Shown: positions 6,079-62,323, counted from the first letter of the stretch. The stretch: 64,000 bases of DNA from Candidatus Saccharimonadota bacterium (GCA_017480035.1 JAFVBJ010000003.1:298126-362125), one strand, 5' to 3'. The notes: a model not told the origin generated them from the letters alone. Translations and numbers: made by a program.

Positions 6079-6137
6079 GAAACTATTTTACCATAAAAAC
6101 CTCGACTTTTCCATCTGTCTAGGGTATAATCATAAGT

Positions 6138-6512
6138 ATGTTAGCACAAGGTCTAATTTCTTGGTGGTATGTCGACGGCTACAAACTTTTTGTGAATAAA
6201 CTTTGGACGAAACTTGGCGACACTATTGATCTTTTTTCGATTGGTTCACTTATTAAAACTCTTTTCGCGCCTTATCGTCAAATTGCCGCAAACGAAACCG
6301 GCACTAGCATCGACGACAAACTTCTCGCGTTTGTCGACCGTCTAGTTTCGCGTCTCGTTGGTAGTGTTGCGAGAATCGGCATTATTCTCGCCGGTATCGT
6401 TGTCATTCTTATTCAATTTCTCGGCTCAATCCTTTCTCTCGTTATTTGGCCGCTCATTCCGTTCTCGCCAATCCTATTTATCGTTCTTGCAGTGATGGGA
6501 GTGACGCTATGA
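6138..6512 (+). CDS. Conserved small membrane protein coupled to the Clp-like ATPase
   Basis: TLFAPYRQ motif, C-terminal hydrophobic helices; ATGA overlap with the next gene. Confidence 0.75.
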   Translation: MLAQGLISWWYVDGYKLFVNKLWTKLGDTIDLFSIGSLIKTLFAPYRQIAANETGTSIDDKLLAFVDRLVSRLVGSVARIGIILAGIVVILIQFLGSILSLVIWPLIPFSPILFIVLAVMGVTL

Positions 6513-8905
6513 ACGAATTCAAATATAATTCCACTCGCGCAAAATACGCCCGTCTCGGACATTTGTTAAACTCTCCGGTAATTTTTGCTTTACTTTGGCT
6601 TTTAATCCTCGTCCCGCCGATTTTTGGAATTTTGCTTTTAATTCAGAAAAATTCACTCGGCTGGCTCTTTTTCATCGTAACAGTTTTTGCATTGATGACA
6701 CTCGTCATTATTAAATTGCTTTTCTTGCGCGTTCCGCTCGGAAAAACTGACGACATCACCGACATTCTTTCGAGTAATGTCATCTCAATCATGAATAAGG
6801 ACCCAACTCCAAAAGAATTTGCCCCAAAATTGATGGAAACACGTTCAGGCCGTTTTCTCGCTCTGCGTTTTGGATTAGTTCCGCGCTTGCTCGCAGGTGT
6901 CGCGAGTGATTTGCCGGACGACATGACGCCGGTTTTTGAAAACGCTCGCAAAATTGCTAAAGAAATTAACGCTCCACAAATTTCCGGTGGTATTCTCGCT
7001 GTCGCTATCATCATCACGCATCCAAATCATGAAGAAATTCTCGCACGCATGCGACTTTCCGTTTCGGATTTGAAAGAGGGAATTATTTGGTACAATTATC
7101 TCCATGGTCTCGTCAAAGATTCAAAGAAAAAACGTCGTGACGGCGGAATTGCCCGTGATTTCACTTTTGGATTTACCCCGCTTCTTTCACGCTACGGCTT
7201 AAATCTTTCCGCGAATCGTAGCTTGACGATGAAAACTCAACTTTTCCGTTCCGAGCACAAAGAAGCTATCGCCCAAATGACCGAAATTTTCAGCAACGCT
7301 GGTCGTCAAAATGTTGCGCTTATCGGACCGGACGGTTGTGGTCGCTCGACCGTCGTGAACGCTTTTGCTGAACAATTGCTCGATGCAAATTCGAAAATCC
7401 CAAACAACTTAAAATATCGTCAAATCATCAAACTTGATGCTGCCGCACTGATTGGTGGAACTAGTGGCCAAGGCGATATCGAACGTCTCGTTTCGAGCCT
7501 CCTAAACGAAGCTTACTCCGCAAAAAACATTATTTTATATCTAAATAACGCACATCTTTTCTTTGAAACTAGCGTTGGTTCGGTTGATATTTCTAATATG
7601 CTGACTCCAGTACTCGAAGCTGGAAATTTGCGCATGATTTTGTCGCTCGACGAGCAAAGATTTCTTGAAATTTCTTCGCGCAAACCGAATTTGACCAATG
7701 CGCTCAACAAAATCATGATTAATCCGTCAAACGAATCCGAAACTATGAAAGTAATGGAAGACCAAATTCCGGGCCTTGAATGGAAATATCATGTCACATA
7801 TACTTATTGGGCTTTGAAAGAAGCGTATCGCCTCGGCGACCGTTATATTAAAGACGTTGAAATGCCAGGTCGCGCTATTCGCGTTCTTGAAGATGCTGCA
7901 CGCTACGCAAAAGACGGTTTAGTTTTTGGCGAATCCGTCCAAGAAGCGATTGAAAAAACACAAGGCATCAAACTTCAAGCCGCAACTAGCACCGAAGAAT
8001 CTCGCGACCGACTTTTGAATCTCGAACAACTCATCCATGAGCGCATGATTGACCAAGAACCGGCCGTGCACGCCGTTTCTGACGCATTGCGTCGCGCTGC
8101 TGCTGGCGTTCGCAACGAAAACAAACCAATCGGCACTTATCTCTTCCTTGGTCCAACCGGCGTCGGTAAAACTGAGCTTGCCAAAGCCCTTTCGCAAGTT
8201 TATTTTAATGGCGAATCTGAGATTATTCGTATTGACATGAACGAATATGTCGAGTCAAGCGACGTCAATCGTTTGATTGCTGAAGGTGCGACCGATGCAA
8301 TGTCTCTTACTGCACAAGTCCAAAAACATCCATTTTCTGTCGTTTTGCTTGATGAAATTGAAAAAGCTAGCCCGCAAGTTCTAACGACGCTCCTCCAAAT
8401 GCTCGACGAAGGAATTCTACGCGACACGAAAAACCATGAAGTTTCTTTCCGCGACGCGATTGTAATTTGTACTTCGAACGCAGGTGCTGATAAAATCCGT
8501 GAGCGCATTGACAGCGGGAATTACGAAAGTCTAAAAAATGAAATCACGAATTTCTTGATTGAATCACGCGAATTTAAACCGGAATTTTTGAACCGTTTTG
8601 ATGAAATTTGTTTGTTTAAGCCGCTCAGCAAAGATGACTTAATGAGAATTACCGACCTTCTCATAAAAGGTGTCAACAAAACTCTTGCACCGCAAAAAAT
8701 CGAAGTTGCACTCGAAGATGACGCGAAAATGCTATTGATTGACGCTGGCTACGACCCGATGCTCGGCGCTCGTCCGATGAAACGCGTCGTCAGCAAAACT
8801 GTCGAAAACATCGTCGCAAAAGCTTCGCTGCGCAGCGAAATTAAAAGTGGCGACGTCTTGAAAATTACTGCCGACCAAATCAAACAAGAACTAGGGAACG
8901 AATAA
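6509..8905 (+). CDS. Membrane-anchored ClpA/B-family AAA+ ATPase with degenerate first AAA domain
   Basis: Start reassigned to ATG 6509. Two N-terminal TM helices; D1 GPDGCGRST/LYLNNAH; D2 FLGPTGVGKTELAK, RIDMNEY, LLDEIEKA, FKPEFLNRFDE, GARPMKR. Confidence 0.88.
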   Translation: MNEFKYNSTRAKYARLGHLLNSPVIFALLWLLILVPPIFGILLLIQKNSLGWLFFIVTVFALMTLVIIKLLFLRVPLGKTDDITDILSSNVISIMNKDPTPKEFAPKLMETRSGRFLALRFGLVPRLLAGVASDLPDDMTPVFENARKIAKEINAPQISGGILAVAIIITHPNHEEILARMRLSVSDLKEGIIWYNYLHGLVKDSKKKRRDGGIARDFTFGFTPLLSRYGLNLSANRSLTMKTQLFRSEHKEAIAQMTEIFSNAGRQNVALIGPDGCGRSTVVNAFAEQLLDANSKIPNNLKYRQIIKLDAAALIGGTSGQGDIERLVSSLLNEAYSAKNIILYLNNAHLFFETSVGSVDISNMLTPVLEAGNLRMILSLDEQRFLEISSRKPNLTNALNKIMINPSNESETMKVMEDQIPGLEWKYHVTYTYWALKEAYRLGDRYIKDVEMPGRAIRVLEDAARYAKDGLVFGESVQEAIEKTQGIKLQAATSTEESRDRLLNLEQLIHERMIDQEPAVHAVSDALRRAAAGVRNENKPIGTYLFLGPTGVGKTELAKALSQVYFNGESEIIRIDMNEYVESSDVNRLIAEGATDAMSLTAQVQKHPFSVVLLDEIEKASPQVLTTLLQMLDEGILRDTKNHEVSFRDAIVICTSNAGADKIRERIDSGNYESLKNEITNFLIESREFKPEFLNRFDEICLFKPLSKDDLMRITDLLIKGVNKTLAPQKIEVALEDDAKMLLIDAGYDPMLGARPMKRVVSKTVENIVAKASLRSEIKSGDVLKITADQIKQELGNE

Positions 8906-8907
8906 AA

Positions 8908-9516: not shown

Positions 9517-9542
9517 CCGCGCTTATGCTAAAATAAATTTAT

Positions 9543-10982
9543 ATGGGTCTATTTGATAGAATTAGAAATGAACTAAAAGAAGAAAGATCTCCAGCGAAAA
9601 CTGGTTGGGAAAATATGGACGTGCGCCAGGAGCAGTCTGTCGAAAATGAGCGCCAGTCCGAAGTTCAGAAAAAACGCCAATACGATAAACTCATCCAAGT
9701 TTTGAAGCCTCAAACTCCAGACGTCTCGAAAGTTATGGGCGAGCCGGAGCCTGCCGGTCCAAACGACGAAGATATTGTTCTCGCGAAAATCGCCTATGGC
9801 CAGACTACGAGCAAAGATTTTGAAATGGTTTTAAACAACATTAAAGGCCCGCTCACTGATCGTTACGGCGAACAAAGCGAAAAAGCCATCTTTGGCGCAT
9901 TTTCGCGCATCTCAGACGACAAACATCAACTAAAAATGTTACAATTTGCAATCGGCCAAAATCCTGACGACTATAACAAAGCTGAACCTGATGCTGTTTC
10001 GCTCGCAGCTGACACATTTAAAAACCCAATGCAATTTGAAGCGAAAATGGAACCGTTCATGACCTATCTCGCAGAGCATAACTCTCCTGAAAAAGTCAAA
10101 GAATACGAAGAAGCTTTTGACGACTTATCAAAAAATCTTTTCGGAAAGAAATATGAATACTTCAAACGCATGCAGGAACTGACCGCCAAATCGGCTCGAA
10201 TTTTTGGCGCACCAGAAAAATCCCCATTAGTTCCGGAAGGTATCCCAGTAGTTGAAACCGAAAAATCGAGCGAACGCTTAATTAAAGGTGGCAGCTACTA
10301 CCAAATTTCACGTGCCCAAGCTAAAAATGGCATTCGTGCTGAATTTGGCCGCACGCTCGAATACGACCAAGATTGTGAAGATTCAAGTTTTGTCGACCCA
10401 GACAAAGGTTTCTTCGGCGTTTTTGATGGTGCTGGCGGACACGTTGGTGGACGTCGCGCTTCGAGTATCGGCGCCGCAACGATGGCGGACATGATGCGTC
10501 AATTTGGAGAACCAAAAACTCCAGCTGACCTTTCAGATTGGCTCGACGAAGCTTCGCGTCGTGTCTCAAATGACCCTAGTGCCGGTTACGCCACCGCCAC
10601 TCTCGCAAAAGTCATCAACAGTCAAAACGGCAAAAAGGCTGTGATATACGCCCAAGTTGGCGATTCCAGACTCTATATTATCCATAAAAATGGCCAAGCT
10701 GAGCTCGTCACGAAAGACGAAGGTTTTGAAAATAAAATTACAAACGCTCTCGGTTACGACCAAGACACTACTTGTCGTCAAGCCGGCTATCGTGAACTTG
10801 TGCCTGGCGACAAAATCATGCTTTGTTCCGACGGCATCACTGGCGACAAAGGTACTGATTTGATGAGCGAACAAGAAGTTGGCGCTATCGTTTCTGGTGT
10901 TGACACGGCTTATGCAGCTCAAGCTCTCGTTCATCAAGCCAGAAAAAGCGACGATCGCACGGCAATCGTCGCTGAAGTATAA
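9543..10982 (+). CDS. PP2C/PPM-family Ser/Thr phosphatase with long unknown N-terminal region
   Basis: CEDS, FGVFDGAGG, VGDSRLY, MLCSDGIT, DDRTAIV motifs in the C-terminal half. Confidence 0.85.
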   Translation: MGLFDRIRNELKEERSPAKTGWENMDVRQEQSVENERQSEVQKKRQYDKLIQVLKPQTPDVSKVMGEPEPAGPNDEDIVLAKIAYGQTTSKDFEMVLNNIKGPLTDRYGEQSEKAIFGAFSRISDDKHQLKMLQFAIGQNPDDYNKAEPDAVSLAADTFKNPMQFEAKMEPFMTYLAEHNSPEKVKEYEEAFDDLSKNLFGKKYEYFKRMQELTAKSARIFGAPEKSPLVPEGIPVVETEKSSERLIKGGSYYQISRAQAKNGIRAEFGRTLEYDQDCEDSSFVDPDKGFFGVFDGAGGHVGGRRASSIGAATMADMMRQFGEPKTPADLSDWLDEASRRVSNDPSAGYATATLAKVINSQNGKKAVIYAQVGDSRLYIIHKNGQAELVTKDEGFENKITNALGYDQDTTCRQAGYRELVPGDKIMLCSDGITGDKGTDLMSEQEVGAIVSGVDTAYAAQALVHQARKSDDRTAIVAEV

Positions 10983-11672: not shown

Positions 11673-11791
11673 AGAAAACCACCTCTTTCTAAAAAAATAG
11701 TTATAAAAGAACAAAGTGAGCGTTGTTGCTCACCTGCTACAATTATATCATAGTTAAGGCAAAGAAACTATCCCGTGCTATAATATCAGAA

Positions 11792-12859
11792 ATGGATGCG
11801 TTCTATACTTCCACTGTTTTGGCTGAGACTATGGGTTTGTATTTTCCAGATTTCAAAAAAGAAGAAATCCGCATTCTCGAACCATCTGTCGGAACTGGCA
11901 ATTTACTGCCCGAAATTTTCAAAAAATATCAAAATAAAAAAGTTGTGATTGATGTTTTTGATGTTGATGAAAAAGTTTTGAAAAACCTCAAAAAATCTTT
12001 ACGCGAGATTCCGAAAAATTTCAAAATAAATTATTTTTGTGAAGATTTTTTGTCACATAATTTTCACGCAAATTATGATTTTATTGTTGCGAATCCGCCG
12101 TTCACTTTTGCGCAAGAATTTCTCGAAAAATGTTTGACGCTCGGCAATAAAATCGCAATGATTATGCCAAAAACTTTTTTGAGCTCCGAGAAATTTCGTC
12201 GCACGCGGGATTTTATCGAAAATATTGAAATCGAAAACATTTTAGATTTTGGCGAACGCGGATTTTCTGATGTAAAAATCGAAACGATATGTCTTTTTTT
12301 GAATGCAAACGGAAAACCAAGCGAGCATCAAAAATACATCACGGACAAATCATTTCCGTATTGGCTGCTTTATCGAAACGAAAAATTTGATAAATTTTTC
12401 AAAAAACTCGAACTCGGAATTTTTGATGTTGCGCGCGACCGCGATTTGAAAAATGAATTTTTATCATCCGAGAAATCTCCTGAAAACAATATTTGGGTTT
12501 TGCGTTCAAGAAATATCGCAAAAAACGGATTGAAACATTTTGAAAAATACGATAGATATACTTCAAAAGAAAATTTAAAAGGCACAAAAGCGGTAAAATT
12601 TTTGAATCGTGATGATGTTTTTCTTGTCCCAAACATGGCCGAAAAAATCCGCATTGCGAAAAAATCCAAAAATGTTGTTTGTAATGGCTCGGTTGCGATT
12701 TTGATTCCAAAGAATAATATAGAAATTTTCGAAAAAGATGTAGAGTTTTTTGAAAGTGATGAGTTTAACGAGTTTTATGACATTGCAACGAATCGCGCGA
12801 CCCGCTCAAGAAATATCGACAAAAATTCAGTTTTCTTCTTTGGAAAAAACCGAAGATGA
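11792..12859 (+). CDS. Orphan amino (N6-adenine-type) DNA methyltransferase, Eco57I/TaqI-like catalytic core
   Basis: Motif I ILEPSVGTGNLL, motif IV VANPPF, DFGERGFSDVKIET; AT-rich sequence; start at ATG 11792 after TGCTATAAT. Confidence 0.82.
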   Translation: MDAFYTSTVLAETMGLYFPDFKKEEIRILEPSVGTGNLLPEIFKKYQNKKVVIDVFDVDEKVLKNLKKSLREIPKNFKINYFCEDFLSHNFHANYDFIVANPPFTFAQEFLEKCLTLGNKIAMIMPKTFLSSEKFRRTRDFIENIEIENILDFGERGFSDVKIETICLFLNANGKPSEHQKYITDKSFPYWLLYRNEKFDKFFKKLELGIFDVARDRDLKNEFLSSEKSPENNIWVLRSRNIAKNGLKHFEKYDRYTSKENLKGTKAVKFLNRDDVFLVPNMAEKIRIAKKSKNVVCNGSVAILIPKNNIEIFEKDVEFFESDEFNEFYDIATNRATRSRNIDKNSVFFFGKNRR

Positions 12860-13035: not shown

Positions 13036-13093
13036 ATAAAAATATTTTACCACATTTTTCCCCAGAGTGCTACTTCTGTGGTATAATAAGCTT

Positions 13094-15313
13094 ATGGCAA
13101 AACGAAAGAAACGTAAATCTTCAAGAGAAGTAGCTCCTGAACATGAGCTTCCGGGTGGTTTCTGGCGTCAAGTTGGCGCAGTTGTTCTTCTTGCTCTCGC
13201 AGTCGTCCTCGTTATGACGTGGTTCGGCTCTGGTGGCACTATCTTAAACAACATTCATGCTGGCGCAACTTATGCGATTGGCTATGCAGCTTATTTCATT
13301 CCAATTTTGCTAGTCTATCTCGCTGTTTCGATTTTTCGCGCTGAAGGTAATCGCCTCCCAATCGTAACTTGGGTTGCGAGCTTTCTCATGGTCGCTTGGC
13401 TTTCTGGTATCTTCGGAATCCCTACTTTCGGTCAAGAAAACCCGACCGGTGGCGTCGTCGGCGAAGGCCTAAACACTCTCATGACTCAAATTCTCGATAA
13501 AGGTGTCGTTGTCTTTATCTATGTCGTTCTGATTTTTATCACTGGCATCTTCATTCTCGCGATTTCTCCAGCTTCCGTTTTTCGCTTCATTGGCGGACTT
13601 TTTCGTAGCACCAGAAAAAGCGAGGACCAAGAAAATGCAAAAATTGCGCGTCGTGCAAATGCCGAAGCAAGTTCCGCTCCAATTCGTGTTCGTGGCGGTA
13701 TTTCTGAAGCTGTCGCAAAAGCCGATGAAGAGAATAAAAAGCTTAATATCCATCGTCCAGCCGCCGAGAAAAAACCAGTCGAAGAAAAAGTCCCAGAGCG
13801 CGCACTCGTCGCTGTCTCTGATCCGAATTGGAAAATGCCTAGCACCGATCTTCTCTCGAAGAAGACGAATCCGCCTGATGGTGGCAACATCCAACAAAAC
13901 GCTGCGATTATTCGCCAAACTTACGAGCAATTCGGCATTAATGTTGAAATCGACGGCGCTAACGTCGGCCCGCGCGTCACGCAATATACTTTGAAGCCGC
14001 CTGCCGGCATCAACCTCGGAAAAATTACCGCTCGCGACAAAGAGCTCGCGATGAATCTCGCAGTCGACAAAATCCGTATCGAAGCTCCAATTCCTGGTAC
14101 AAACCTCGTCGGCGTTGAACTTCCGAACGCGCGCTCCGAAGGCGTTACTCTCCGTAGCCTTCTTGAATCTCCAGCTTGGAAAAAGGCCGATAAACCTCTA
14201 ACTTTTGTCGTCGGTAAAGATATTTCCGGCCAACCAATCATGGCAAACCTCGCCAAAATGCCACATCTTCTTATCGCCGGTACAACTGGTTCTGGTAAAT
14301 CCGTCATGACCAATATCTTGATTTCGAGTTTGCTTTATCGTAACGCTCCGAGTGATCTAAAACTTATCATCGTCGACCCGAAACAAGTTGAAATGGTCCA
14401 ATATGACGGCATCCCACATCTTCTCACCCCAATCATCAACTCGACCGACAAAGCTCTCTCGGCTATGAAATGGGCCGTAAACGAGATGGAGCGCCGCTAT
14501 ACGCAAATGGCGAGCGAACATGTTAAGAATATCGAAGATTACAACGCTAAAATCGCTAGTAGATCCGCCACCGTTAAAGATGAAGATGGCAACGACCAAC
14601 AACAAGAAGGCGCTAAAATGCCTTATATCGTCGTGATTATCGATGAGATGGCAGACCTCATGATGCAAGCCGGCAAAGACCTCGAACAGCCGATTGTCCG
14701 CATTGCCCAGAAAGGTCGTGCTGCTGGTATGCACCTTGTACTTGCAACTCAGCGTCCAGTCGTGAAAGTTATTACCGGCCTCATTAAGTCAAACGTCCCG
14801 GGTCGTATCGCTTTCGCCGTCAATAATAACCAAGATTCCCGCATCATGCTCGACATGGGTGGCGCCGAAAAATTGCTCGGTTCTGGCGATATGTTGATGC
14901 TTACGACCGAAATGATGGGTAAACCTCGTCGTATTCAGGGCGCTTTCGCTTCTGATGCCGAAATCGAAAAATTGACGAATTTCCTCCGCGAGCAACGCGC
15001 TCCAGAATATAATGACGAAGTTATCTCCCAAGCCGTTTCGGTTGGTCCTGGCGATGGAGGCTCAATCGGTGATTTTGGCCGTAAATATGACCCGAACGAC
15101 CCGCTAGTCCGAAAAGCTGTTGAGATTATGATTAGTAATGGTAAATTCAGTACCTCAATGCTCCAGACTTATCTCGGAAAAGGACATGGTTTTGTCTCTG
15201 GGCTCGCGCTTTGGTTTGGCGAAATTGGCGTAATCGGCGAAGCAAATGGCAACAAACCGCGTGATGTCCTTATCAGCTCTCTCGAAGAATTCGACGAGCT
15301 CGCAAATCACTAG
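13094..15313 (+). CDS. ftsK: DNA translocase FtsK/SpoIIIE
   Basis: N-terminal TM helices; GPRVTQY, PHLLIAGTTGSGKS, DPKQVE, IIDEMADLM, LATQRP, GAEKLLGSGDML; start ATG 13094. Confidence 0.95.
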   Translation: MAKRKKRKSSREVAPEHELPGGFWRQVGAVVLLALAVVLVMTWFGSGGTILNNIHAGATYAIGYAAYFIPILLVYLAVSIFRAEGNRLPIVTWVASFLMVAWLSGIFGIPTFGQENPTGGVVGEGLNTLMTQILDKGVVVFIYVVLIFITGIFILAISPASVFRFIGGLFRSTRKSEDQENAKIARRANAEASSAPIRVRGGISEAVAKADEENKKLNIHRPAAEKKPVEEKVPERALVAVSDPNWKMPSTDLLSKKTNPPDGGNIQQNAAIIRQTYEQFGINVEIDGANVGPRVTQYTLKPPAGINLGKITARDKELAMNLAVDKIRIEAPIPGTNLVGVELPNARSEGVTLRSLLESPAWKKADKPLTFVVGKDISGQPIMANLAKMPHLLIAGTTGSGKSVMTNILISSLLYRNAPSDLKLIIVDPKQVEMVQYDGIPHLLTPIINSTDKALSAMKWAVNEMERRYTQMASEHVKNIEDYNAKIASRSATVKDEDGNDQQQEGAKMPYIVVIIDEMADLMMQAGKDLEQPIVRIAQKGRAAGMHLVLATQRPVVKVITGLIKSNVPGRIAFAVNNNQDSRIMLDMGGAEKLLGSGDMLMLTTEMMGKPRRIQGAFASDAEIEKLTNFLREQRAPEYNDEVISQAVSVGPGDGGSIGDFGRKYDPNDPLVRKAVEIMISNGKFSTSMLQTYLGKGHGFVSGLALWFGEIGVIGEANGNKPRDVLISSLEEFDELANH

Positions 15314-17707: not shown

Positions 17708-18550
17708 TTATTTCTTTTCACCGCCAAGTACGACGTTGTTAGCATGGAGCCAGCCTTCGACTGTTCCACCATCGAGATATTCGCCAGCGGTTCTCGCAAC
17801 GCGGATTGTTCCGCCTTTTTCGATGAACGATGCGAACGGGTCGGTAATCATGTATTCTTGGTCGTTCGGGCCAAAATCGTGTGAGTTGACATAGTCTACA
17901 ATTTCGCGAAGAAGTGACGGCGAAAGAATGTATTTCGAAACCGATGCCAGCCCAGTCACTTGTTCCGGTGCTGGTTTCTCTGTGATTTTTGTTAGACGTT
18001 CGTTCTCAATCGTGAGTGCGCCGCCATTTAAGAGCGCTTCATACGGATGGTCAATTCCGAGAATGACCGATTCATCTTCGCCTTGTATCGCCTTAGTGAG
18101 CGAAGTCGCCGAAGATTCGCCATCCGGATTCCAAATAAAATCGTCACCCATGAAACAATAAACCGGTTCGTTGATGTTGTATTCTTCAACCACCATCGCA
18201 ACCGGCACCGCAGTACCATAGCGCCCCGATGGGTCTTGAATCGTATAGTGAATTGTCACATCTTCCGGCAAAGTTTTTGCGAGCTCGAGCCTGTCCTTTT
18301 TTCCGCGCTCAATCAGATAATTATTCAGCGCGAGATTATCTTTATAAAACTCTTGGACTTGGCAAGGCTCGACATTTGAAATCACCATATAAATATCTTT
18401 TACGCCCGCCTCAATCAGCTCTTGTACCGAGTAGTCGACTAGCGGTCTATTTCCGACTGGAAGCATCGATTTTTCAATAATTTTTGTGATTGGAAGCCTG
18501 CGCGTTCCCCAGCCTGCAACAGGGATGATTGCTTTAGTGATTTTCTTCAT
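17708..18550 (-). CDS. galU: UTP-glucose-1-phosphate uridylyltransferase-like sugar-phosphate nucleotidyltransferase
   Basis: KAIIPVAGWGTRRLPITK, KSMLPVGNRPLVDY, EKP, YLDGG. Confidence 0.85.
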   Translation of the reverse strand: MKKITKAIIPVAGWGTRRLPITKIIEKSMLPVGNRPLVDYSVQELIEAGVKDIYMVISNVEPCQVQEFYKDNLALNNYLIERGKKDRLELAKTLPEDVTIHYTIQDPSGRYGTAVPVAMVVEEYNINEPVYCFMGDDFIWNPDGESSATSLTKAIQGEDESVILGIDHPYEALLNGGALTIENERLTKITEKPAPEQVTGLASVSKYILSPSLLREIVDYVNSHDFGPNDQEYMITDPFASFIEKGGTIRVARTAGEYLDGGTVEGWLHANNVVLGGEKK

Positions 18551-18603
18551 ACCTACCTTTCATTATAGCATATTTTTACGTTTTTGTCAATGCTTATGCT
18601 TTT

Positions 18604-21034: not shown

Positions 21035-21102
21035 GAGTAAATTCATTATATCACATTTTGATTTTTTAGGCAATTCTATTTTCCCGTGATATAATAAAAT
21101 AT

Positions 21103-22716
21103 ATGGATAAACTGAATTATGGTGGGCCGGTTGTTCTTGTCGTCATGGATGGCGTCGGTCTATCTAGAGACCTAAAAGGTAATGCCGTTCTCCAGGCACA
21201 CACTGAATTTTTGGATAAGGCTGTCCAAACTCAAAAGACTATGGGCTTGAAAGCCTCCGGCGAAGCCGTGGGAATTTTGGCTGGACAAATGGGAAATTCT
21301 GAAGTTGGACACAATGCTCTCGGTGCCGGTCAAATTATTAAACAGGGAATTGCCAAAATCGAAGACGAACTCGAGACTGGTAAAATCTGGGAATCAACTG
21401 CCTGGACTGGCGCAATCGCAAACGTCAAAGCTCACGATTCAACCCTCCATTTTTCTGGAATTTTTAGTGATGGCGGTGTTCATTCCGACATCAATCATCT
21501 CGAAAAAATGTTAAAAAGGGCGAGTGAAGAAAAAATCAAACGCGTTCGCATTCATCTCGTTTTGGATGGACGTGACGTTCCGCCTCGTAGCGCCGAAAAA
21601 TATGTCGACCGTCTCGAAAAATTCCTCGACACTTTAAAGGACGAATATGGTAATAAACGTGACTACAAAATCGCCGGTGGTGGCGGCCGCATGGTCTATG
21701 TTGCCGACCGCTATGAAACTGATTGGGAAGTCGTCAAACGTGGCTGGGATGCTATCGTTTACGGCAAAGCCGAAAACTATTATGGCTCTGCCTCGGAGGC
21801 AATCTCCGAATTACGCCGCAAAAATTCTGATATTTTAGATCAATATCTCCCGCCGTTCGTGCTTGTCGAAAACGGCGAACCGGTTGGAAAAGTCAGCGAC
21901 GGCGATAGTTTTATTTATTATGATTTTCGTGCCGACCGCGCCATCGAAATCGCCGAAGCTTTCACTTACGATAATTTTGACGGATTCGACCGTGGCACTG
22001 AAGGAAATCGTAAGCTCGACGTTTTCTTCGCTGGCATGACCGAATATAATTCCGACACTCACGTCCCACAGTATCGCTTAATTGAGCCGGTCGAAATCAA
22101 AGATTCTCTCCATGAATTTCTTGGTCGTCATGAAATTTCGCAACTTTCCGTTGCTGAAACTGCAAAATTTGGCCACATTACTTACTATTTTAACGGTAAT
22201 TCTTACGAAAAATACAACAACGAAAAACAAATCGAAATTGAGTCCGACACTCGTCCATATAACGAACGTCCGTGGATGAAAGCTGCTGAAACGACCGACG
22301 CTTTACTTGATGAAATTGAGAATTATAAATTTATCCGCATTAATTATGCTGGCGGCGATATGGTTGGACATTTTGGCGACATGGAAGCAACGATTACGGC
22401 GATGGAAGCGATTGATATCCAACTTTCACGCCTTGCAAAAAAACTTGATGAAATCGGTGGAATGATGATTATTACTGCCGATCACGGCAACGCCGAAGAA
22501 TTACTCGACGAAAATGGGGAGCCAAAAACTTCGCACTCAACCAATCTCGTTCCGTGTATTTTCTATGATAATACCGAAAATGCTAAACTTTATGATTTGA
22601 ACCGCATTTCTGATGCCGGACTTTCGAACATTGCTTCGACTCTCGCGAATCTGCTCGGTTTTGATAATTCCGAATTTCCAGAGAGTTGGCGCGAAAGTCT
22701 CATAAAACGTCTGTAA
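21103..22716 (+). CDS. gpmI: 2,3-bisphosphoglycerate-independent phosphoglycerate mutase
   Basis: VVMDGVG, GQMGNSEVGH, DGGVHS, DGRDVPP, FRADRA, AETAKFGHITYYFNG, DMVGHFG, TADHGNAE. Confidence 0.96.
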   Translation: MDKLNYGGPVVLVVMDGVGLSRDLKGNAVLQAHTEFLDKAVQTQKTMGLKASGEAVGILAGQMGNSEVGHNALGAGQIIKQGIAKIEDELETGKIWESTAWTGAIANVKAHDSTLHFSGIFSDGGVHSDINHLEKMLKRASEEKIKRVRIHLVLDGRDVPPRSAEKYVDRLEKFLDTLKDEYGNKRDYKIAGGGGRMVYVADRYETDWEVVKRGWDAIVYGKAENYYGSASEAISELRRKNSDILDQYLPPFVLVENGEPVGKVSDGDSFIYYDFRADRAIEIAEAFTYDNFDGFDRGTEGNRKLDVFFAGMTEYNSDTHVPQYRLIEPVEIKDSLHEFLGRHEISQLSVAETAKFGHITYYFNGNSYEKYNNEKQIEIESDTRPYNERPWMKAAETTDALLDEIENYKFIRINYAGGDMVGHFGDMEATITAMEAIDIQLSRLAKKLDEIGGMMIITADHGNAEELLDENGEPKTSHSTNLVPCIFYDNTENAKLYDLNRISDAGLSNIASTLANLLGFDNSEFPESWRESLIKRL

Positions 22717-26350: not shown

Positions 26351-26409
26351 AATGAATATTATATCATGAAAAATACGTTTTTTGCTGTTCTGTGTTATAA
26401 TGGTTATGT

Positions 26410-38900: not shown

Positions 38901-38950
38901 ATCTCTATTGTACCACAACATAACCGTTTTAATTATGTTAAAATAGAAAC

Positions 38951-41570: not shown

Positions 41571-41597
41571 CATGCTGAAATATGGTAAAATAAAGAT

Positions 41598-49471: not shown

Positions 49472-49627
49472 ATTATATATATTTTACCACAAGCGTGTTT
49501 ATTTTTGTACCTCGTTTTAAGAATTTGCAACCAAATAAGTCATTTGTGAACTTCAACCGCGGTAGGAGTTCGAGTAGGCGAGAGCTTGCTCTCATCTGCG
49601 AGACGACGCCCCGCGGAAGAAGTGTAA

Positions 49628-49935: not shown

Positions 49936-51099
49936 TTATCTTTTCCTTAATACTATTATTTCTCGAGCCACAATTTGCCCTTCTCTGAAGTAGAGCATAT
50001 CCTCTTGACTCAAGTGGTTTAACTTTAGAACATTATACCCCATATCTTTAATTTCGTCAAGGATATTCAACCTTTCGTAGTGTCCATTTGGTCTGAGCCA
50101 AGCCGGCACGGCGAGCGCGAGTGGTGTTCTTGAGTCAATCTGCCCCGAAATATTCTTCAAAAACCCTAGAATTATGCTTTTACACTCTTGTTTTTGCTCT
50201 TTCAATTTAATTTCGACTGGCGGTTGACTCATCGGCGCCCCGAGATACGTTTCACAAGCGACCGCATCGATTTTTTTATCCCAAGAGAAATTAGTCGCAT
50301 CGCCAACCGAAAGCAAAAACAAGTTCTTTGCGGTAGCAGGACCTTGGGCTACCGCGAAGGAACTGTTTTCTTTTTCCGTTAGCCATTCCAAATTTTTCTC
50401 CGAATACTCAATCATGCGGTCGCTTAAATCTGTTCCGTACGCCGTGTAGCCGTCAAGCAAAGCTTCCTGTAAAACCACGCCAGTTCCACAAAACGGATCT
50501 AAAATTCGCGAACCTTCAGGCAGTGGTCCGCAAAGATTAATTAAAATCTGCGCCAATTTCGGCGGGAGCATTCCAACTTTCGCATCTCTTGCCGGTCGTG
50601 CTTGGTCGCGATTTTTATAAGCCGTAATATTTTGCACCCCAATTAAAACATACCATTCTTTGCCAACCTTCAAAAACTCCACATGTCCGTCTTTTTCGCC
50701 CATTTGATTGTGATGTGATGTCGCCGTAGAAAGCGCTGCGTCGTTATTTTGTAGAACTCGCGCCGAGCGTCCCTGCCGTGCTAAAATTTTCTTGATTTTC
50801 AGCGCTTCGCCTTGTGATTTAAATTTTCTCGCCCCTTTCGAATAATCCGAAACTCCAATCACGAATTTTCCAGAAAAAGCCCCGTCGCTAGTATTTAAAT
50901 TCAGAAGATAATCAACTGGATTTTCCGAAATCAATTTTCCAAATTTCAGCGTTCCGCCGAATCGATTGATGTTAATGGTTTTATTCGATTCAAAAACCGC
51001 AAGATTTGGTGCAATTTTTTTGACACTTTCGCCAAATTGCGCCGTTAGTTCCGCCAAAGAAATGTCGGAAAGTCGTCCAAGAACCGCTAAATATTTCAT
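49936..51099 (-). CDS. TRM11-like SAM-dependent methyltransferase (THUMP-type N-terminus)
   Basis: Start ATG 51099; RPARDAKVGMLPPKLAQILIN, ILDPFCGTGVVLQEA, GTDLS, GDAT, CETYLG. Confidence 0.78.
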   Translation of the reverse strand: MKYLAVLGRLSDISLAELTAQFGESVKKIAPNLAVFESNKTININRFGGTLKFGKLISENPVDYLLNLNTSDGAFSGKFVIGVSDYSKGARKFKSQGEALKIKKILARQGRSARVLQNNDAALSTATSHHNQMGEKDGHVEFLKVGKEWYVLIGVQNITAYKNRDQARPARDAKVGMLPPKLAQILINLCGPLPEGSRILDPFCGTGVVLQEALLDGYTAYGTDLSDRMIEYSEKNLEWLTEKENSSFAVAQGPATAKNLFLLSVGDATNFSWDKKIDAVACETYLGAPMSQPPVEIKLKEQKQECKSIILGFLKNISGQIDSRTPLALAVPAWLRPNGHYERLNILDEIKDMGYNVLKLNHLSQEDMLYFREGQIVAREIIVLRKR

Positions 51100-51117
51100 G
51101 TTATAATATATTATATC

Positions 51118-52203
51118 ATGGAAAAATTCTCGGTTTCTGAATTTATCGCCTACTGTAATCAAACTTTAGAATACGCATATACTGGCTGCACGGTTGAAGG
51201 TGAAGTTTCTGAAATGAAAACGAGTCAAGGCAAATGGGTCTTCTTTAGCTTAAAAGACGACGACGGCTCAATCGATTGTTTTATTCCAATTTGGCAACTT
51301 CGTGTACCAATCGAAGATGGTATGAAAATTATTGTGCGTGGAACACCAAAGCTGACGAGTTGGGGAAAATTTAGTTTTACAGTTCAAGCGATTCAACCAG
51401 TCGGGCAGGGAAACATTAAGAAAAGTTTTGAACTTTTGAAAAAGAAACTCGAAAAAGAAGGACTTTTCGACGAAGCGAAAAAACGCTCAATTTCAAGAGA
51501 TATCTCGAAAATCGGCGTCATCTCAAGTACGCAAGCCGCTGGCTATGCTGATTTTATTAAAATCATCAATGAACGTTGGGGCGGCCTGGAAATTTCAGTT
51601 TGTCACACTCAAGTCCAAGGCCTTGTCGCGCCAGACCAAATTATTCGCGCGTTAAATTATCTGAATGAACGCGCCGAAGTTGAAGTGATTGCAATCATTC
51701 GCGGCGGCGGTTCTGCTGACGACCTCGCTTGCTTTAATGATGAGAAGCTTGTCCGTGCTATTGCCGCTTCAAAAATTCCAGTTATCACTGGCATCGGTCA
51801 CGAAGTCGACGAAAGTCTTTCTGATCTCGCTGCCGACGTTGTCGCATCAACTCCAAGCAACGCTGCCCAAATGCTCACGCGCGACAAAAAAGCCGAAATC
51901 GAAAATCTCCACGAAAATATTTCGCGTATTTCTACCCAAATTTCCTCGCGTCTCGATTTGATAAGAAGCGACACGAAAATGAAAACTCTAAGTATCGCCT
52001 CAAAAATTTATTCCGATATTGAATCGAAAATCGCCCAAACTATTAATCTCAAAAAAGTACTTGAAGGTCTAAATCCCGACAATATTTTGAAAAATGGCTA
52101 CGCGATTTTGACCGGAAAAGTTGCCGTCGGTAGCGAAATTAAAATCGAAACCGCAAAATCCTACATCAATGCCAATATAACAAAAGTAAAGGAGAAAAAA
52201 TGA
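51118..52203 (+). CDS. xseA: Exodeoxyribonuclease VII large subunit
   Basis: VEGEVS, FFSLKD, IGVISS, RGGGSADDL, ITGIGHEVD, TPSNAA. Confidence 0.95.
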   Translation: MEKFSVSEFIAYCNQTLEYAYTGCTVEGEVSEMKTSQGKWVFFSLKDDDGSIDCFIPIWQLRVPIEDGMKIIVRGTPKLTSWGKFSFTVQAIQPVGQGNIKKSFELLKKKLEKEGLFDEAKKRSISRDISKIGVISSTQAAGYADFIKIINERWGGLEISVCHTQVQGLVAPDQIIRALNYLNERAEVEVIAIIRGGGSADDLACFNDEKLVRAIAASKIPVITGIGHEVDESLSDLAADVVASTPSNAAQMLTRDKKAEIENLHENISRISTQISSRLDLIRSDTKMKTLSIASKIYSDIESKIAQTINLKKVLEGLNPDNILKNGYAILTGKVAVGSEIKIETAKSYINANITKVKEKK

Positions 52204-53246: not shown

Positions 53247-53274
53247 TCCACGTATTTTATGCTATACTATAAGT

Positions 53275-53961
53275 ATGCAGGAGGTAGATAATATTTTTGT
53301 CGCAGCTCACGAGCTGAAAAGCCCGCTTTCTCTTTTGCGTCAACTCGCGCTCTCGATGGAAATTGACGACCAAATCTCACTCAAACGCACTCAATCTCGC
53401 ATGGTCGAAGTTTCTGAACGCGCCCTCCGCCAAGTAAACGACTTAACAAAAGTTTCTCGCCTCGAAGATGGCTTGTTTGAACTCGAGCCAGTTTCGATTC
53501 GCGCAGTTTGTAATGAAGTGACGAATGAACTTCGCTATCTTTATCGCGCTAATCATCGCGATATTTTTGAAAAATACACCAACCACTCAAAACTCGTCAT
53601 TGCTAATCGCGAATTACTTTACTCTGTGATTTATAATTTCTGTTCTAACGCTATGCACTATTCCGATGCTGGTACTCGCGCTCGTATCTTTGTCCGCGAC
53701 AGGAAAGGCAAAGTCGAAATCCAAGTTAGAGATTACGGCCCAGCTCTTCCGACAAAAATCTGGAAAGATTTGAATCATGGCTGGTTACGCGAACCGACTT
53801 CGGTTGCGATGCGTCCCGGTTCGAGTGGTCTCGGACTCTACATCGCCTCGAAATTCAGCCGCTATATGCACGGCGAAGTTTCGGCTGTCCGCCACAGAGA
53901 TGGCACGAGTTTCACGCTCATTCTTCCTGTTTCGACTCAAACTAGCTTATTTGGAGAATAA
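53275..53961 (+). CDS. Cytoplasmic histidine kinase without sensor domain
   Basis: H-box AHELKSPL, N-box YNFCSNAMHYS, G1 RDYGP, G2 GSSGLGLYIA. Confidence 0.88.
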   Translation: MQEVDNIFVAAHELKSPLSLLRQLALSMEIDDQISLKRTQSRMVEVSERALRQVNDLTKVSRLEDGLFELEPVSIRAVCNEVTNELRYLYRANHRDIFEKYTNHSKLVIANRELLYSVIYNFCSNAMHYSDAGTRARIFVRDRKGKVEIQVRDYGPALPTKIWKDLNHGWLREPTSVAMRPGSSGLGLYIASKFSRYMHGEVSAVRHRDGTSFTLILPVSTQTSLFGE

Positions 53962-56381: not shown

Positions 56382-56400
56382 CTTGTGGTATAATGGGGGT

Positions 56401-56949
56401 ATGAAAAAACGCAAGAAAACAAAAAAATATAAAGTTAGTCTGTCAGTTGTTTTAAGCCCGATTATCATATTTTCGCTTCCTGTGGTTGCTATAACAACGA
56501 TCGACCTCATGGACGGTGGCTTTTCGCTACTTTTCATGGGTTTTCTCTTTTTTCCAGTAGCGATTGTAGCTGTAATTGCTGGAGTTTTCGGTTCATATAT
56601 AATAGGTCGAAATATCGCAATCTATAATCAGGTCCACGGGAAATCTATTAGCGCGAATATTAAATGGTTGCTTGTGATGGTTCTGGTGCTAGCAGGCCTA
56701 AGTATTGGTCTTGCGGGCTTAATGAGAGGCTACCCGATGAAACATTGTCTTAGCGCTTGTGAAAAGATTCCTTTTTATGAATCAGTTTTTACTGCATTAG
56801 CTTATATTATGGTTGCGTCAATTCCAGCTTTTTTCGCCACCTTGAAAAAATATGACGAAAAAACTATCAAAAAACTCGCTGATATACCAGTGAAAAAATC
56901 CTCAAAAAAATCTACAAAAAACTCCCACGAAGATTTTGAAGAATTGTAA
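56401..56949 (+). CDS. Hypothetical membrane protein (AT-rich)
   Basis: Start ATG 56401 after TGGTATAAT; about 4 hydrophobic segments. Confidence 0.7.
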   Translation: MKKRKKTKKYKVSLSVVLSPIIIFSLPVVAITTIDLMDGGFSLLFMGFLFFPVAIVAVIAGVFGSYIIGRNIAIYNQVHGKSISANIKWLLVMVLVLAGLSIGLAGLMRGYPMKHCLSACEKIPFYESVFTALAYIMVASIPAFFATLKKYDEKTIKKLADIPVKKSSKKSTKNSHEDFEEL

Positions 56950-56995: not shown

Positions 56996-57508
56996 TTAAA
57001 TAAAAATTCGTTTTCCGCTCTCGCAGTGTTTGTAAAATTCTGAGCAAGAAAAATTTTTATTTGGAGCCACGTATTCGTAAATGCATAAATTTTTGGGGTT
57101 ATACTGACTATCAAGCTCGTTATCAATAAACTTTACTCTAATATCTTTTAGGGCCGCCTCGGAATTATCGTACTGATATAGTCCGCGCATTAACATCCAC
57201 GAATGCTCATACCAATAAGCTTTATCATCTTTGTGAAAAATCAAAAAAGTGTGCGTCGGGCATTTGTCGTCGTCATAATAAACAATGAAATAGGTTTCAA
57301 ACGATAGATTCTTTTTATTAAAAAGCTCACGTTCTAGTTCAACTTGGTCCCAACACACACCAAGCTTACTTTTTCGAAGTTGGTCTGGCGATTGGAGCCT
57401 GTATTTTTGGCTAAATTCGTCAAATTCAGTATAGCGTCTGCCAGCCTCATCAACCCAACCATATTCGATGTCTTTCATGATGTCATCAATATCAGAAATA
57501 AAATCCAT
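56996..57508 (-). CDS. Hypothetical protein, papain/transglutaminase-like fold suspected
   Basis: GVCWDQVE (Cys), THTFLIF (His), WYEHSW (Glu); AT-rich. Confidence 0.55.
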   Translation of the reverse strand: MDFISDIDDIMKDIEYGWVDEAGRRYTEFDEFSQKYRLQSPDQLRKSKLGVCWDQVELERELFNKKNLSFETYFIVYYDDDKCPTHTFLIFHKDDKAYWYEHSWMLMRGLYQYDNSEAALKDIRVKFIDNELDSQYNPKNLCIYEYVAPNKNFSCSEFYKHCESGKRIFI

Positions 57509-57551
57509 GCCACTATTATACTATTTTTAGAGCTTAATAAAAAATAATCAC

Positions 57552-57768: not shown

Positions 57769-57845
57769 GCACAAATTGACGTTCGTCTCATATTATTATA
57801 GCACAAAATAAGATAGAATCAACCAGGAAGTGATATAATATATAT

Positions 57846-59150
57846 ATGAAAAAATTTAATACATCCCCAATTTCTGGCATGCAAGAGCTGACTCCAGCTA
57901 AGCAGGCCATCTTTGACAAGCTTAAAAACGAGATTGCTGGGGTGTATCATTCTCACGGTTTTCTCTCGATTGAAACGCCAATCATTGATCGTACCGAAAT
58001 CCTACTTGCGAAAGCTGGCGGTGATACCGAGAAACAAATCTATAAAGTCGTGAAGACTGCCGAGACTGAGGGTGATGCGGACCAAGCACTCCGCTTCGAT
58101 CATACCGTCCCGCTCGCACGCTACGTCGTCGAACACGAAAACGACATCACTTTCCCATTTAAAGTCACTCAAATTGGCCGCAACTTCCGTGGTGAACGCG
58201 CCCAAAAAGGCCGTTTCCGCGAATTTTATCAACTCGACGTCGACGTAATCGGCCGCGAAAAACTTGCGCTCGCTTATGATGCTGAAGTTGTGAAAACAGC
58301 TTATGACGCGCTTAAAACTTTCATTAAACCGGAGATGAAAATTCGAATCAGCAACCGCAAAATTCTCTCCGGTCTTCTCCAAGAACTCGGTCTCGAAACA
58401 AAATCTGAAGACATTTTCAGTATTATCGACCACGCCGAAAAAGTCCCGAAAGAAAAGACGCTTTCCGCTTTCGAAGAAATCGGTCTTAGTAATTCCGAAA
58501 TCGAAAAACTCTCGAGCTTCATGGGAATTAATGGCACTCGTGAAACTGTCATCGAAAAGTTGAAAAATCTCGACATCAAAAACGAAATCTTCGCGCTCGG
58601 CGTCGAAGAACTTGACGAAGTTCTCGCTCTTCTCGAAAAACAAGGTTTGAAAGACACTGCGGTTGGCGACATGTTGATTATTCGTGGTCTCGATTATTAT
58701 ACCGGCTCAGTCTTTGAAACATTCCTCCCGGAATATCGTGAAATTGGCTCGATTTGTTCCGGCGGCCGCTACGAGAATCTCGCTTCGAACTACACCGAAA
58801 ATAAATTCCCGGGCGTCGGCATCTCGATTGGCTTAACTCGTCTTTTCTACGTTTTGAATGAGAATAATCTACTTGACGAAGTCTCCGAAAATCCAATCGA
58901 CCTCGTCTTGATTCCATTCTCCGAAAATGAATACGAATATACTTTCAATCTCGCCGAAAAACTTCGAAGCTCCGGCAAAAAAGTCGACATCAATCTTTCC
59001 GACAAAAAAGTTGGCGATAAATTCACCTACGCTGCAAAAATCGCGAAATTCGCGTCCGTGATTGGTGGAAATGAAGTTGAAACCGGCAATATTGAAGTAA
59101 AAAACCTCGAAACTGGCGAAAAACTTAAACTCGAAGACTATATTAGATAA
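57846..59150 (+). CDS. hisS: Histidine-tRNA ligase
   Basis: ISGMQE, IETPI, LRFDHTVPLARY, GERAQKGRFREFYQLDVD, RGLDYYTG, GGRYENL, GISIGLTR. Confidence 0.96.
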   Translation: MKKFNTSPISGMQELTPAKQAIFDKLKNEIAGVYHSHGFLSIETPIIDRTEILLAKAGGDTEKQIYKVVKTAETEGDADQALRFDHTVPLARYVVEHENDITFPFKVTQIGRNFRGERAQKGRFREFYQLDVDVIGREKLALAYDAEVVKTAYDALKTFIKPEMKIRISNRKILSGLLQELGLETKSEDIFSIIDHAEKVPKEKTLSAFEEIGLSNSEIEKLSSFMGINGTRETVIEKLKNLDIKNEIFALGVEELDEVLALLEKQGLKDTAVGDMLIIRGLDYYTGSVFETFLPEYREIGSICSGGRYENLASNYTENKFPGVGISIGLTRLFYVLNENNLLDEVSENPIDLVLIPFSENEYEYTFNLAEKLRSSGKKVDINLSDKKVGDKFTYAAKIAKFASVIGGNEVETGNIEVKNLETGEKLKLEDYIR

Positions 59151-60861: not shown

Positions 60862-61576
60862 CTTGGTCCCAGCCCCAGCTCGTGTCGAAGCCGGTCGTCT
60901 CAAGCCCGCCGAATTTGAAGTATGGCATCCCGGACGTCCCCGATTTTTCCATAATTTTTGCAGCTTTTTTCGTGTTTTCTCGTACATGCTCGAGCTGTGA
61001 ATGATTCTTATAACAGTCCTTAAACGAGTCGCCTAGCCCGACTTCGTATCCAATCTCAAGCCAGTAATCTGCGGTCATTCCTTCGATTTTCGGCGCTGTT
61101 TTTGAGTTTCCGATGCCTTTTGAATGGTAATCTTCGTTGAGTGATGTCATTGTATTGTGATAATATTCCCAGAATTTTCCTTCTTCCGTCGCACAGAGCG
61201 TTGCTTCTGCCGCCTGTTCGGATTTTGCGCCCGCCTCACCGTATTCATTCAAGAAATCCGTGATTCTCATCTCATAGACCACGTCATTATCTTTGAGCCA
61301 CTGTTCAAATTCGTCTTGATGCGACATAATTGCGCGCGAGAAATAATCACAATACGGACACATAATATCTGTCGTCATGACATAATGGTTCTTCGCGTCT
61401 TTATTCCCGAGAATTGTTCTTTCGTCCCAAATCGCGTTCAAATCGTCGCTCTTTGGTGTTCCAATCACAATTAGCGAAATAATCGCAATCGCAATCAAAA
61501 CTAGCACAATCACGCGAATCACAACTCCTACCGCGCCGTTTCCGCCGCCAATTTTTTCGTAATCTGAATCGTTCAT
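60827..61576 (-). CDS. Membrane-anchored DsbA/thioredoxin-fold oxidoreductase
   Basis: N-terminal TM; LGNKDAK, DIMCPYC, SGMPYF cis-Pro loop. Confidence 0.82.
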   Translation of the reverse strand: MNDSDYEKIGGGNGAVGVVIRVIVLVLIAIAIISLIVIGTPKSDDLNAIWDERTILGNKDAKNHYVMTTDIMCPYCDYFSRAIMSHQDEFEQWLKDNDVVYEMRITDFLNEYGEAGAKSEQAAEATLCATEEGKFWEYYHNTMTSLNEDYHSKGIGNSKTAPKIEGMTADYWLEIGYEVGLGDSFKDCYKNHSQLEHVRENTKKAAKIMEKSGTSGMPYFKFGGLETTGFDTSWGWDQVKTYYLEAGLK

Positions 61577-62184
61577 TTTTTGCTTCCTTTCTTTCTAAAT
61601 TCCTCAGATTTTATTATTGCATACGTCTCAAAACCAACTTTTTTCAGTGCAAATAGCGCTATTAAAATCGAAAGGATTGTTAGTACCCAACTCACCGTTC
61701 CCGCAATCGCCATCCCAGAGCTTCCGGCAATCGAGATGATGATTGGTGCTAGAATCGTCGTTCCGCAAGTCGGGCAACCCGAGCCAAGCACAATCAGACC
61801 TGTGATAATCCCAGCATTCTGGAGATTCGCGGTATCTTTTCGATATTTATAAACATAAACCACCAGCCCAATCAGCGTCGATTGTAAAATTGTCACGAGA
61901 AAGATAAATAGAAAGTCAGAAAACTCTCGATTCACTCCAAAAGTGCCGAGAAAAGCGTTGAAAAGCAGGGAAATTTTATCGAAAAATCCTACTCTCATCA
62001 AAATTCCGAAGCTTGCGCCGCCAGAAGCAAGTAAATTCAGCAACGTCCCGAAGAACACGAAAGCAATCAAAAAGGTGATCACGAAGCGTTTTTTGCGAGT
62101 CGCAAGCAAAACTCCATAAAACGCAAGCTTGAATTCATCAAGCCACCTCGAGAGCTTTGAATAAATTTTCTTACCTCCAGCCAT
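61573..62184 (-). CDS. Four-TM membrane protein with a CxxC motif
   Basis: Start ATG 62184 after TGATATACT; LGSGCPTCGTTIL; 4-nt overlap with the dsbA-like gene. Confidence 0.75.
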   Translation of the reverse strand: MAGGKKIYSKLSRWLDEFKLAFYGVLLATRKKRFVITFLIAFVFFGTLLNLLASGGASFGILMRVGFFDKISLLFNAFLGTFGVNREFSDFLFIFLVTILQSTLIGLVVYVYKYRKDTANLQNAGIITGLIVLGSGCPTCGTTILAPIIISIAGSSGMAIAGTVSWVLTILSILIALFALKKVGFETYAIIKSEEFRKKGSKK

Positions 62185-62323
62185 ATATATAAGTATATCA
62201 TGAAAAAACGCTAGGAATATAAAATCGTCGAAAAATTGAATTACCCCAGCAAAACCGAACAAAAATTTTCGAAACCGAACGAAAAACGCTCATGCGATAA
62301 CATAAAAAAACTAAAAATCAATA

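Follow-up and report, generated by a model that had tools for sequence, protein, structure and literature searches.

According to the GeneMarkS-2 paper, the genomes of its group C, which belong to Actinobacteria and Deinococcus-Thermus, have 25-50% of their operons predicted to be leaderless, with a Pribnow box 6-8 nucleotides (nt) before first-in-operon starts and a Shine-Dalgarno (SD) motif for the remaining genes (Lomsadze et al., 2018; PMC6028130). Likewise, a large fraction of mycobacterial genes is reported to lack an SD and to have its transcription start site (TSS) at the start codon, beside SD-led genes (Cortes et al., 2013; PMC3898074). This report focuses on a comparable layout in a Candidatus Saccharimonadota genome, and specifically in the 64,000-nt stretch of DNA analysed here (the window, positions 298126-362125 of contig C3), in which extended -10 promoter boxes lie a few nucleotides ahead of numerous ATG codons. 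From its sequence, we consider it highly probable that this genome has two discrete modes of starting first cistrons, both served by one extended -10 promoter type. The messenger RNAs of the first set of genes, hereafter class 1, very probably start at or near the start codon, as judged from the position of the -10 box, i.e., they would be leaderless, and the second set is led by an SD.

The window is part of a 773-kb genome in three contigs, with 43% guanine plus cytosine (GC) and 97.5% completeness. Comparison of the histidyl-tRNA synthetase HisS places the genome in the Saccharibacteria (TM7; ultrasmall), its closest relatives being metagenome-assembled genomes from the ruminant gut (84-86% identity), followed by a tier at 60-70% identity that includes genomes labelled Candidatus Nanosyncoccus or TM7-G3. 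The standard genetic code (code 11) fits the genome; recoding of TGA was considered and rejected, as open reading frames (ORFs) are normal under code 11. Genes were called with our own dicodon-based caller, which yielded 719 genes and 91% coding sequence. A motif search revealed one sigma-70-like protein of 320 amino acids (aa) with recognisable region 2, 3.0 and 4.2 sequence. A search of the genome with the Rfam 16S models returned no match, only the 3′ end of the 16S rRNA being present at a contig edge, where it reads directly as GGATTACCTCCTTTCT with the anti-SD intact. Ribosomal protein S1 (C2:6658-7698) has only ~360 aa and spans positions 2-350 of the 516 of its profile, a short form consistent with the S1 of 3-4 domains reported for the Candidate Phyla Radiation (CPR; PMC9297842). 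Loss of S1 as a correlate of leaderless-type starts was dropped, the short S1 (~360 aa) being found in 31/31 relatives examined and hence offering no discrimination.

The evidence that carries the finding is a spacing signal that can be measured independently of gene calls. Both strands of the genome hold 303 TGnTATAAT boxes, after which ATG occurs 66 times at a gap of 6 nt, 30 times at 7, 10 times at 8 and 20 times at 9, over a flat baseline of ~5 per gap position. Gaps 6-7 alone thus account for 96/303 boxes against ~11 expected (Poisson p ~1e-55), and the genome-wide peak at 6-8 nt that the first-pass annotation had anticipated does stand above background. With the looser TANNNT alone, no ATG-spacing peak appears when genes are not used as anchors. 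Anchored on genes, TGnTAnnnT is found 6-11 nt before the first ATG of 163/716 genes, compared with ~0.4% of 3443 internal in-frame ATGs; overall, control gaps and internal ATGs carry the box at 0.3-0.5%. Class 1 was defined by an ATG preceded at a gap of 6-9 nt by a box with a score of ≥6 out of 8, counting TG and the six positions of the hexamer, which gives 194 of the 719 genes, or 214 at gaps 5-11, with 5-9 expected by chance; this amounts to about 28% of all genes.

Class 1 and SD-led genes are mutually exclusive. The SD core occurs in 2.3% of class 1 genes, in 3.4% of control ATGs and in 72% of the remaining genes, so that the leaderless-type starts listed in the first-pass annotation were rightly described as lacking an SD. 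Distances between the extended -10 and the chosen start fall into two modes, with 188 cases at 6-11 nt, a total of 12 over the whole 12-19 nt interval and a second, broad peak at 20-38 nt. The share of class 1 also depends on gene context: 82/180 genes with a divergent upstream neighbour (46%), 73/228 at a co-directional spacing >40 nt, 43/84 (51%) at 16-40 nt, and 13/224 (6%) at ≤15 nt, in which last group 170/224 genes (~76%) have an SD. By looser proxies for operon-first position, class 1 covers 155/408 to 198/492 genes (38-40%), for an overall 38-46% of operon-first genes. The first-pass annotation went too far in proposing that most operon-first genes are leaderless; its idea of a two-tier initiation scheme keeps its other parts, namely a promoter that abuts the start, the lack of an SD there and a separate SD-led class.

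In the window, class 1 and near-leaderless sites comprise murB, ftsK, galU, gpmI, pcrA, sbcB, xseA, hisS, an aldolase fusion, a histidine-kinase core gene and many orphans (strand in brackets; each box is followed by its gap to the ATG):

6076..6093 (-): murB, TGGTAAAAT, 6 nt, ATG 6078; aligns from residue 2 to MurB profile positions 3-338
6122..6140 (+): 124-aa orphan, GGGTATAAT, not TG-extended, 7 nt, ATG 6138; divergent to murB across a 59-nt spacer
9526..9545 (+): PP2C-like 479-aa gene, TGCTAAAAT, 8 nt, ATG 9543; 26 nt past the upstream gene
11776..11794 (+): methyltransferase-like gene, TGCTATAAT, 7 nt, ATG 11792
13079..13096 (+): ftsK, TGGTATAAT, 6 nt, ATG 13094
18548..18570 (-): galU-like gene, TGCTATAAT, 11 nt, ATG 18550, near-leaderless; residues 4-270 align to GalU profile positions 1-261
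21087..21105 (+): gpmI, TGATATAAT, 7 nt, ATG 21103; residue 9 is profile position 2
26348..26366 (-): pcrA, TGATATAAT, 7 nt, ATG 26350; residue 3 is profile position 2
26393..26412 (+): 310-aa gene with a C-terminal aggregation-promoting-factor-like domain, TGTTATAAT, 8 nt, ATG 26410; divergent to pcrA across a 59-nt spacer
36891..36911 (+): 461-aa orphan, CATTATAAT, not TG-extended, 9 nt, ATG 36909
38898..38915 (-): 143-aa orphan, TGGTACAAT, 6 nt, ATG 38900
38936..38953 (+): sulfatase/LTA-synthase-like 642-aa gene, TGTTAAAAT, 6 nt, ATG 38951; divergent to the gene at 38900 across a 50-nt spacer
41549..41600 (+): sbcB, terminator hairpin (GCCCCGC...GCGGGGC, then a T-run, 41549-41575), then TGGTAAAAT, 6 nt, ATG 41598; residue 5 is profile position 6
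49469..49489 (-): 607-aa kinase-like and class I aldolase fusion, TGGTAAAAT, 9 nt, ATG 49471
51097..51120 (both strands): bidirectional module, CATGTTATAATATATTATATCATG; methyltransferase-like ATG 51099 (-) and xseA ATG 51118 (+), gap 10 each; residue 5 of XseA is profile position 1
53260..53277 (+): histidine-kinase core gene, TGCTATACT, 6 nt, ATG 53275
56386..56403 (+): 182-aa orphan, TGGTATAAT, 6 nt, ATG 56401; 19 nt past glyQS
57506..57523 (-): 170-aa orphan, TAGTATAAT, not TG-extended, 6 nt, ATG 57508
57831..57848 (+): hisS, TGATATAAT, 6 nt, ATG 57846
62182..62200 (-): 203-aa orphan, TGATATACT, 7 nt, ATG 62184

All 18 starts for which the first-pass annotation had given a TAnnnT box and a gap have that box at that gap, and 15 of the 18 boxes are TG-extended, the exceptions being 6138, 36909 and 57508. 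Three sites absent from that earlier list, 18550 (gap 11), 51099 and 51118 (gap 10 each), fit the pattern as well.

The bidirectional module is one of four divergent pairs 14-19 nt apart that form near-palindromic units, e.g., CATGATACAATTATATCATG, in which the complement of each start codon is the TG of the partner gene's extended -10 (window 51097-51120; C3:55673-55688; C2:126013-126033; C3:271046-271066). In the other divergent pairs with both genes in class 1, spacings cluster at 50-61 nt. In the aldolase fusion (47648-49471, -), the class I fructose-bisphosphate aldolase domain occupies residues 268-601; the N-terminal 267 aa have normal coding potential, a sugar-kinase-like beginning (MRILIVGNIIKD...) and no Pfam match.

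The SD-led first genes of the window are rpsF-ssb-rpsR, efp, rplY, glyQS, ftsH, pgi, murA, uvrA and the pseudopilin and LemA-like genes. Both the SD motifs and the identities given in the first-pass annotation for rpsF, ssb, rpsR, efp, rplY, glyS, the pilin, the lemA-like gene, pgi and murA were confirmed. The second-class layout is found at the following sites:

35875..35916 (+): MIP-channel-like gene, TGATATAAT-N20-AAGGAGGT-N4-ATG 35914, an example with a leader of ~20 nt
19932 (-): pgi
22757: murA
28944: ftsH
32558: start of a further gene
35833 (-): start of a further gene
43863: uvrA
46823: rplY
55056: glyQS
63129: lemA-like gene

The product of murA (22757-24307, +) has an XRE/Cro-type helix-turn-helix at its N-terminus (residues 10-65), in frame with the enzyme, an unusual regulator-enzyme fusion. 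Genome-wide, the SD-led markers include tuf, fusA, dnaK, gap, recA, rpoB, rpsL and gyrB; lepA belongs to class 1. The retention of an SD by classic high-expression genes fits these assignments. The corresponding earlier claim about highly expressed genes draws on ~20 marker genes, and the link to expression level is a putative one.

Taken as a mechanism, the layout would operate as follows. For class 1 (~200 genes), a single sigma-70-type RNA polymerase would recognise the extended -10 T-R-T-G-n-T-A-T-A-A-T, the -35 being weak or absent, and transcription would start ~7 nt past the box, on the A of the ATG at gap 6 or on a purine 1-3 nt upstream of it at gaps 7-9. The resulting transcript, with a leader of 0-3 nt and no SD, would be translated from its 5′-terminal AUG by a leaderless (70S/IF2-type) route, by analogy with other bacteria. 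For class 2, the same promoter, placed 20-38 nt upstream, would give a leader of ~14-30 nt with a canonical GGAGG-type SD, to which the intact 16S rRNA tail (CCUCC) is complementary; an SD also serves operon-internal genes. Sigma-70 polymerases usually start at a purine ~7 nt past the -10, and in the gap-9 genes the seventh nucleotide after the box is a purine in 26/28 cases, which predicts 3-nt leaders and not a different mechanism. The empty 12-19 nt zone would offer a test case for the leader length at which an SD becomes useful. For the ~200 genes with essentially no 5′ untranslated region (UTR), there would be no room for riboswitch or small-RNA control, and the absence of 5′ UTRs would fit the sparse regulatory repertoire of these epibionts.

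How does this layout compare with the described systems? In keeping with group C, the box is found at first-gene starts (gap peak at 6-7, extending to 11) and is nearly absent from operon-internal positions, where SD motifs are found, and the predicted leaderless share of 38-46% lies within the 25-50% given in the GeneMarkS-2 paper. It differs from group C in lineage (Saccharibacteria/CPR, with a moderate GC of 43%), in a promoter with a TG extension in nearly all cases and a weak -35, and in SD-class leaders that would be very short (~14-30 nt), with the 12-19 nt zone empty. Archaeal leaderless genes (GeneMarkS-2 group D, e.g., Haloferax) likewise combine leaderless first cistrons with SD-led internal genes, but their TATA/B recognition element promoter lies ~26 nt upstream and serves another transcription machinery. 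The experimentally mapped mycobacterial and Deinococcus cases resemble the layout found here; in mycobacteria, the TSSs were mapped experimentally, whereas here they are predicted from sequence. A leaderless mycobacterial transcriptome was also reportedly described by Shell and colleagues in 2015. Mycobacteria also use GUG for leaderless starts, whereas ATG is almost exclusive at the leaderless-type starts of this genome.

The hisS gene shows that the layout is conserved across species. TGnTAnAAT is located 6-9 nt before the ATG in 79/80 orthologous loci from related species (60-86% protein identity), although the sequence further upstream is unrelated between species; the sole exception carries GAGGAG. 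When this genome was compared with four further families of its order, class 1 genes had class 1 orthologues in 39/82 pairs, and SD-led genes had them in 19/125 (odds ratio 5, p = 6e-7). Exact TGNTATAAT-N6-7-ATG arrangements number 53-133 per genome in the genus and 5-21 in other families of the order. An invention specific to the genus was considered and dropped, as a gene-anchored analysis shows the same spacing signal in sister families: TANNNT at gap 6-9 precedes 23-34% of their first ATGs, compared with 29% here, with boxes that are weaker and mostly non-extended. A wider sample took 100 kb per genome from 15 genomes that represent 13 further CPR families; the same measure there gave 16-36%, compared with 3-8% for internal ATGs and 8-20% for a control gap, and in three of the 15 genomes it did not exceed the control-gap value. 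Judged by this motif count, the spacing signal is widespread, extending to other Saccharimonadales families and to most sampled CPR genomes, and what marks this genus is the crisp TRTGnTATAAT box together with a strong SD class. Indeed, SD use varies widely across the CPR: the SD signal of this genome exceeds that of all others in the CPR sample (GGAG/GAGG/AGGA before 49% of starts), and in six others (G093, G068, G041, G033, G047 and G111) these motifs are not enriched (1-7% vs. 5-11% at control ATGs).

The mechanism is known from other bacteria, and the lineage is new to it as far as our literature search shows. Full-text searches returned no report of leaderless genes in Saccharibacteria, Patescibacteria, CPR or TM7, with incomplete coverage that leaves an earlier report possible. 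Saccharibacteria and CPR are not mentioned in the text of the GeneMarkS-2 paper (PMC6028130), a preprint on the TM7x transcriptome contains no text on TSSs, promoters or UTRs, and a 2025 promoter study in Nucleic Acids Research that uses 188 TM7x TSSs says nothing on leaders. A study of CPR ribosomes covers anti-SD loss and the short S1, not leaderless initiation (PMC9297842); with reduced ribosomes and a short S1, the mode of translation start matters in these bacteria. The balance tips slightly in favour of a broader proposal, in which Saccharibacteria and much of the CPR/Patescibacteria would be the third leaderless-dominated bacterial lineage after Actinobacteria and Deinococcus-Thermus, and in which this genus would possess a fixed TRTGnTATAAT-N6-ATG unit that starts both transcription and translation, is largely independent of a -35, has been kept across >80 species and can be packed into bidirectional units of 20-24 bp, tRNA genes being likewise leaderless. 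Such a unit could serve as a minimal expression cassette, ready for use in the genetic systems now emerging for Saccharibacteria.

Several points weigh against leaderless class 1 transcripts. Their start sites are predicted solely from the position of the -10 box; a home-made gene caller chose the starts and class membership is defined through the motif, a circularity controlled by the false-positive rates at internal ATGs and by the spacing test free of gene calls; and the ~20 genes at gaps 10-11 are borderline, as they would have leaders of 3-5 nt. Moreover, 69% of co-directional class 1 genes have no recognisable terminator upstream, and therefore read-through transcripts with long "leaders" may coexist with the short ones. 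The strongest form of this objection holds that the boxes are secondary internal promoters and that most mRNA comes from upstream promoters or read-through and is translated as leadered polycistronic messages. About half of the class 1 genes do sit 16-100 nt past a co-directional gene, and the shortage of intervening terminators speaks for the same idea. Read-through is nevertheless impossible for the 82 class 1 genes with a divergent neighbour, and the SD frequency in class 1 (2.3%) is far from the ~76% of true internal genes. A terminator-like hairpin with a T-run lies just upstream of the box in 31% of co-directional class 1 genes, compared with 2.6% of controls, and often ends 0-10 nt from the box, as at sbcB (41549-41575). 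Finally, the box-ATG spacing kept at hisS in 79 species would be unneeded for a mere internal promoter. We regard this explanation as unlikely.

Leaderless class 1 starts also presuppose correct start codons. Were these mis-assigned, translation would begin at a downstream codon and the leaders would be ordinary. The start rule of our caller favours the motif and many class 1 orphans are without a profile, which leaves some room for this idea, but seven enzymes, MurB, GalU-like, GpmI, PcrA, SbcB, XseA and HisS, give alignments to curated family profiles that begin at residues 2-11, and hisS orthologues align from residue 1. The chosen codon is the first ATG of the ORF for 187/214 class 1 starts, with an in-frame stop at a median of 5 codons upstream; the box precedes 9.2% of ATG candidates vs. 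0.45% of GTG/TTG candidates (20x); and the excess of ATG at exactly gap 6 is independent of gene calls. Wherever profiles allow checking, the box-adjacent ATGs thus appear to be true starts, and mis-assignment seems very improbable. Gene finders that expect an SD will misplace such starts, e.g., at 11723 in place of 11792.

Even less probable is a non-SD role in translation for the TAnAAT-like motif, which would be an A/U-rich site for the ribosome or S1 on leadered mRNA, as in GeneMarkS-2 group B. The box does lie at about the distance of a ribosome-binding site (RBS) and the genome encodes a short S1, yet a box before 6% of closely spaced internal genes and 46-51% of first genes does not agree with the definition of non-SD RBS genomes (group B), and the box is also found 20-38 nt upstream of SD-led genes. 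Its consensus matches a sigma-70 extended -10: the class 1 logo reads T (75%, -17), R (89%, -16), T (91%, -15), G (89%, -14), n, TATAAT, positions 2 (A) and 6 (T) of the hexamer being fixed by the search criterion. TRTGn extended -10 elements are known from Gram-positive bacteria, where Voskuil and Chambliss are said to have described them in 1998, and the logo and weak -35 match those found here. Bacillus TRTGn promoters usually drive leadered, strongly SD-dependent mRNAs, whereas about two thirds of the gene-near boxes of this genome abut the start codon. The -35 region contains a faint TTG (32-52%), matches of at least 5/6 being present in 22/194 class 1 promoters vs. ~6 expected, and terminator T-tracts often fill the -35 position. 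A generic -35/-10 scan was only mildly enriched (42 vs. 26 and 48 vs. 28), which would reflect promoters largely without a -35.

tRNA genes offer a further view of the box: TGnTAnnnT precedes 32/45 of them, mostly 7-15 nt from the mature 5′ end. Examples in the window are:

62940: tRNA-Gly
38325: tRNA-Leu
19987: tRNA-Leu

As tRNA genes are untranslated, the box there cannot be an RBS, and on this sequence evidence we regard it as a promoter, i.e., a transcription signal. The distances also imply very short 5′ leaders for RNase P. That the pattern is a chance product of AT-rich intergenic DNA, in which TAnnnT is common and loose TANNNT shows no peak without gene anchors, can be set aside given the Poisson value for TGnTATAAT, controls at 0.3-0.5% and a layout conserved at orthologues.

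Other features of the window deserve mention. Directly after tRNA-Leu, 38409-38465 contains a perfect TTGACA-17-TATAAT with TG (12/12), followed within 7 nt by a hairpin and T-run, which could be either a promoter for a very short transcript or one firing into a terminator. At 62324-62500, before tRNA-Cys, TTGACA-16-TAAAAT with TG is followed by ~140 nt without an ORF and a hairpin (62470-62493), a stretch with no Rfam match at the gathering score. Another perfect TTGACA-17-TATAAT, within 34416-34602, lies ~158 nt before a 311-aa gene at 34603 that has neither an SD nor an abutting box, a leader unusually long for this genome, with no Rfam match in the leader region. Between sbcB and uvrA, 43140-43823 (+) encodes a stand-alone master DNA invertase of the Mpi family (serine recombinase), which scores 310 bits against a curated cut-off of 272.

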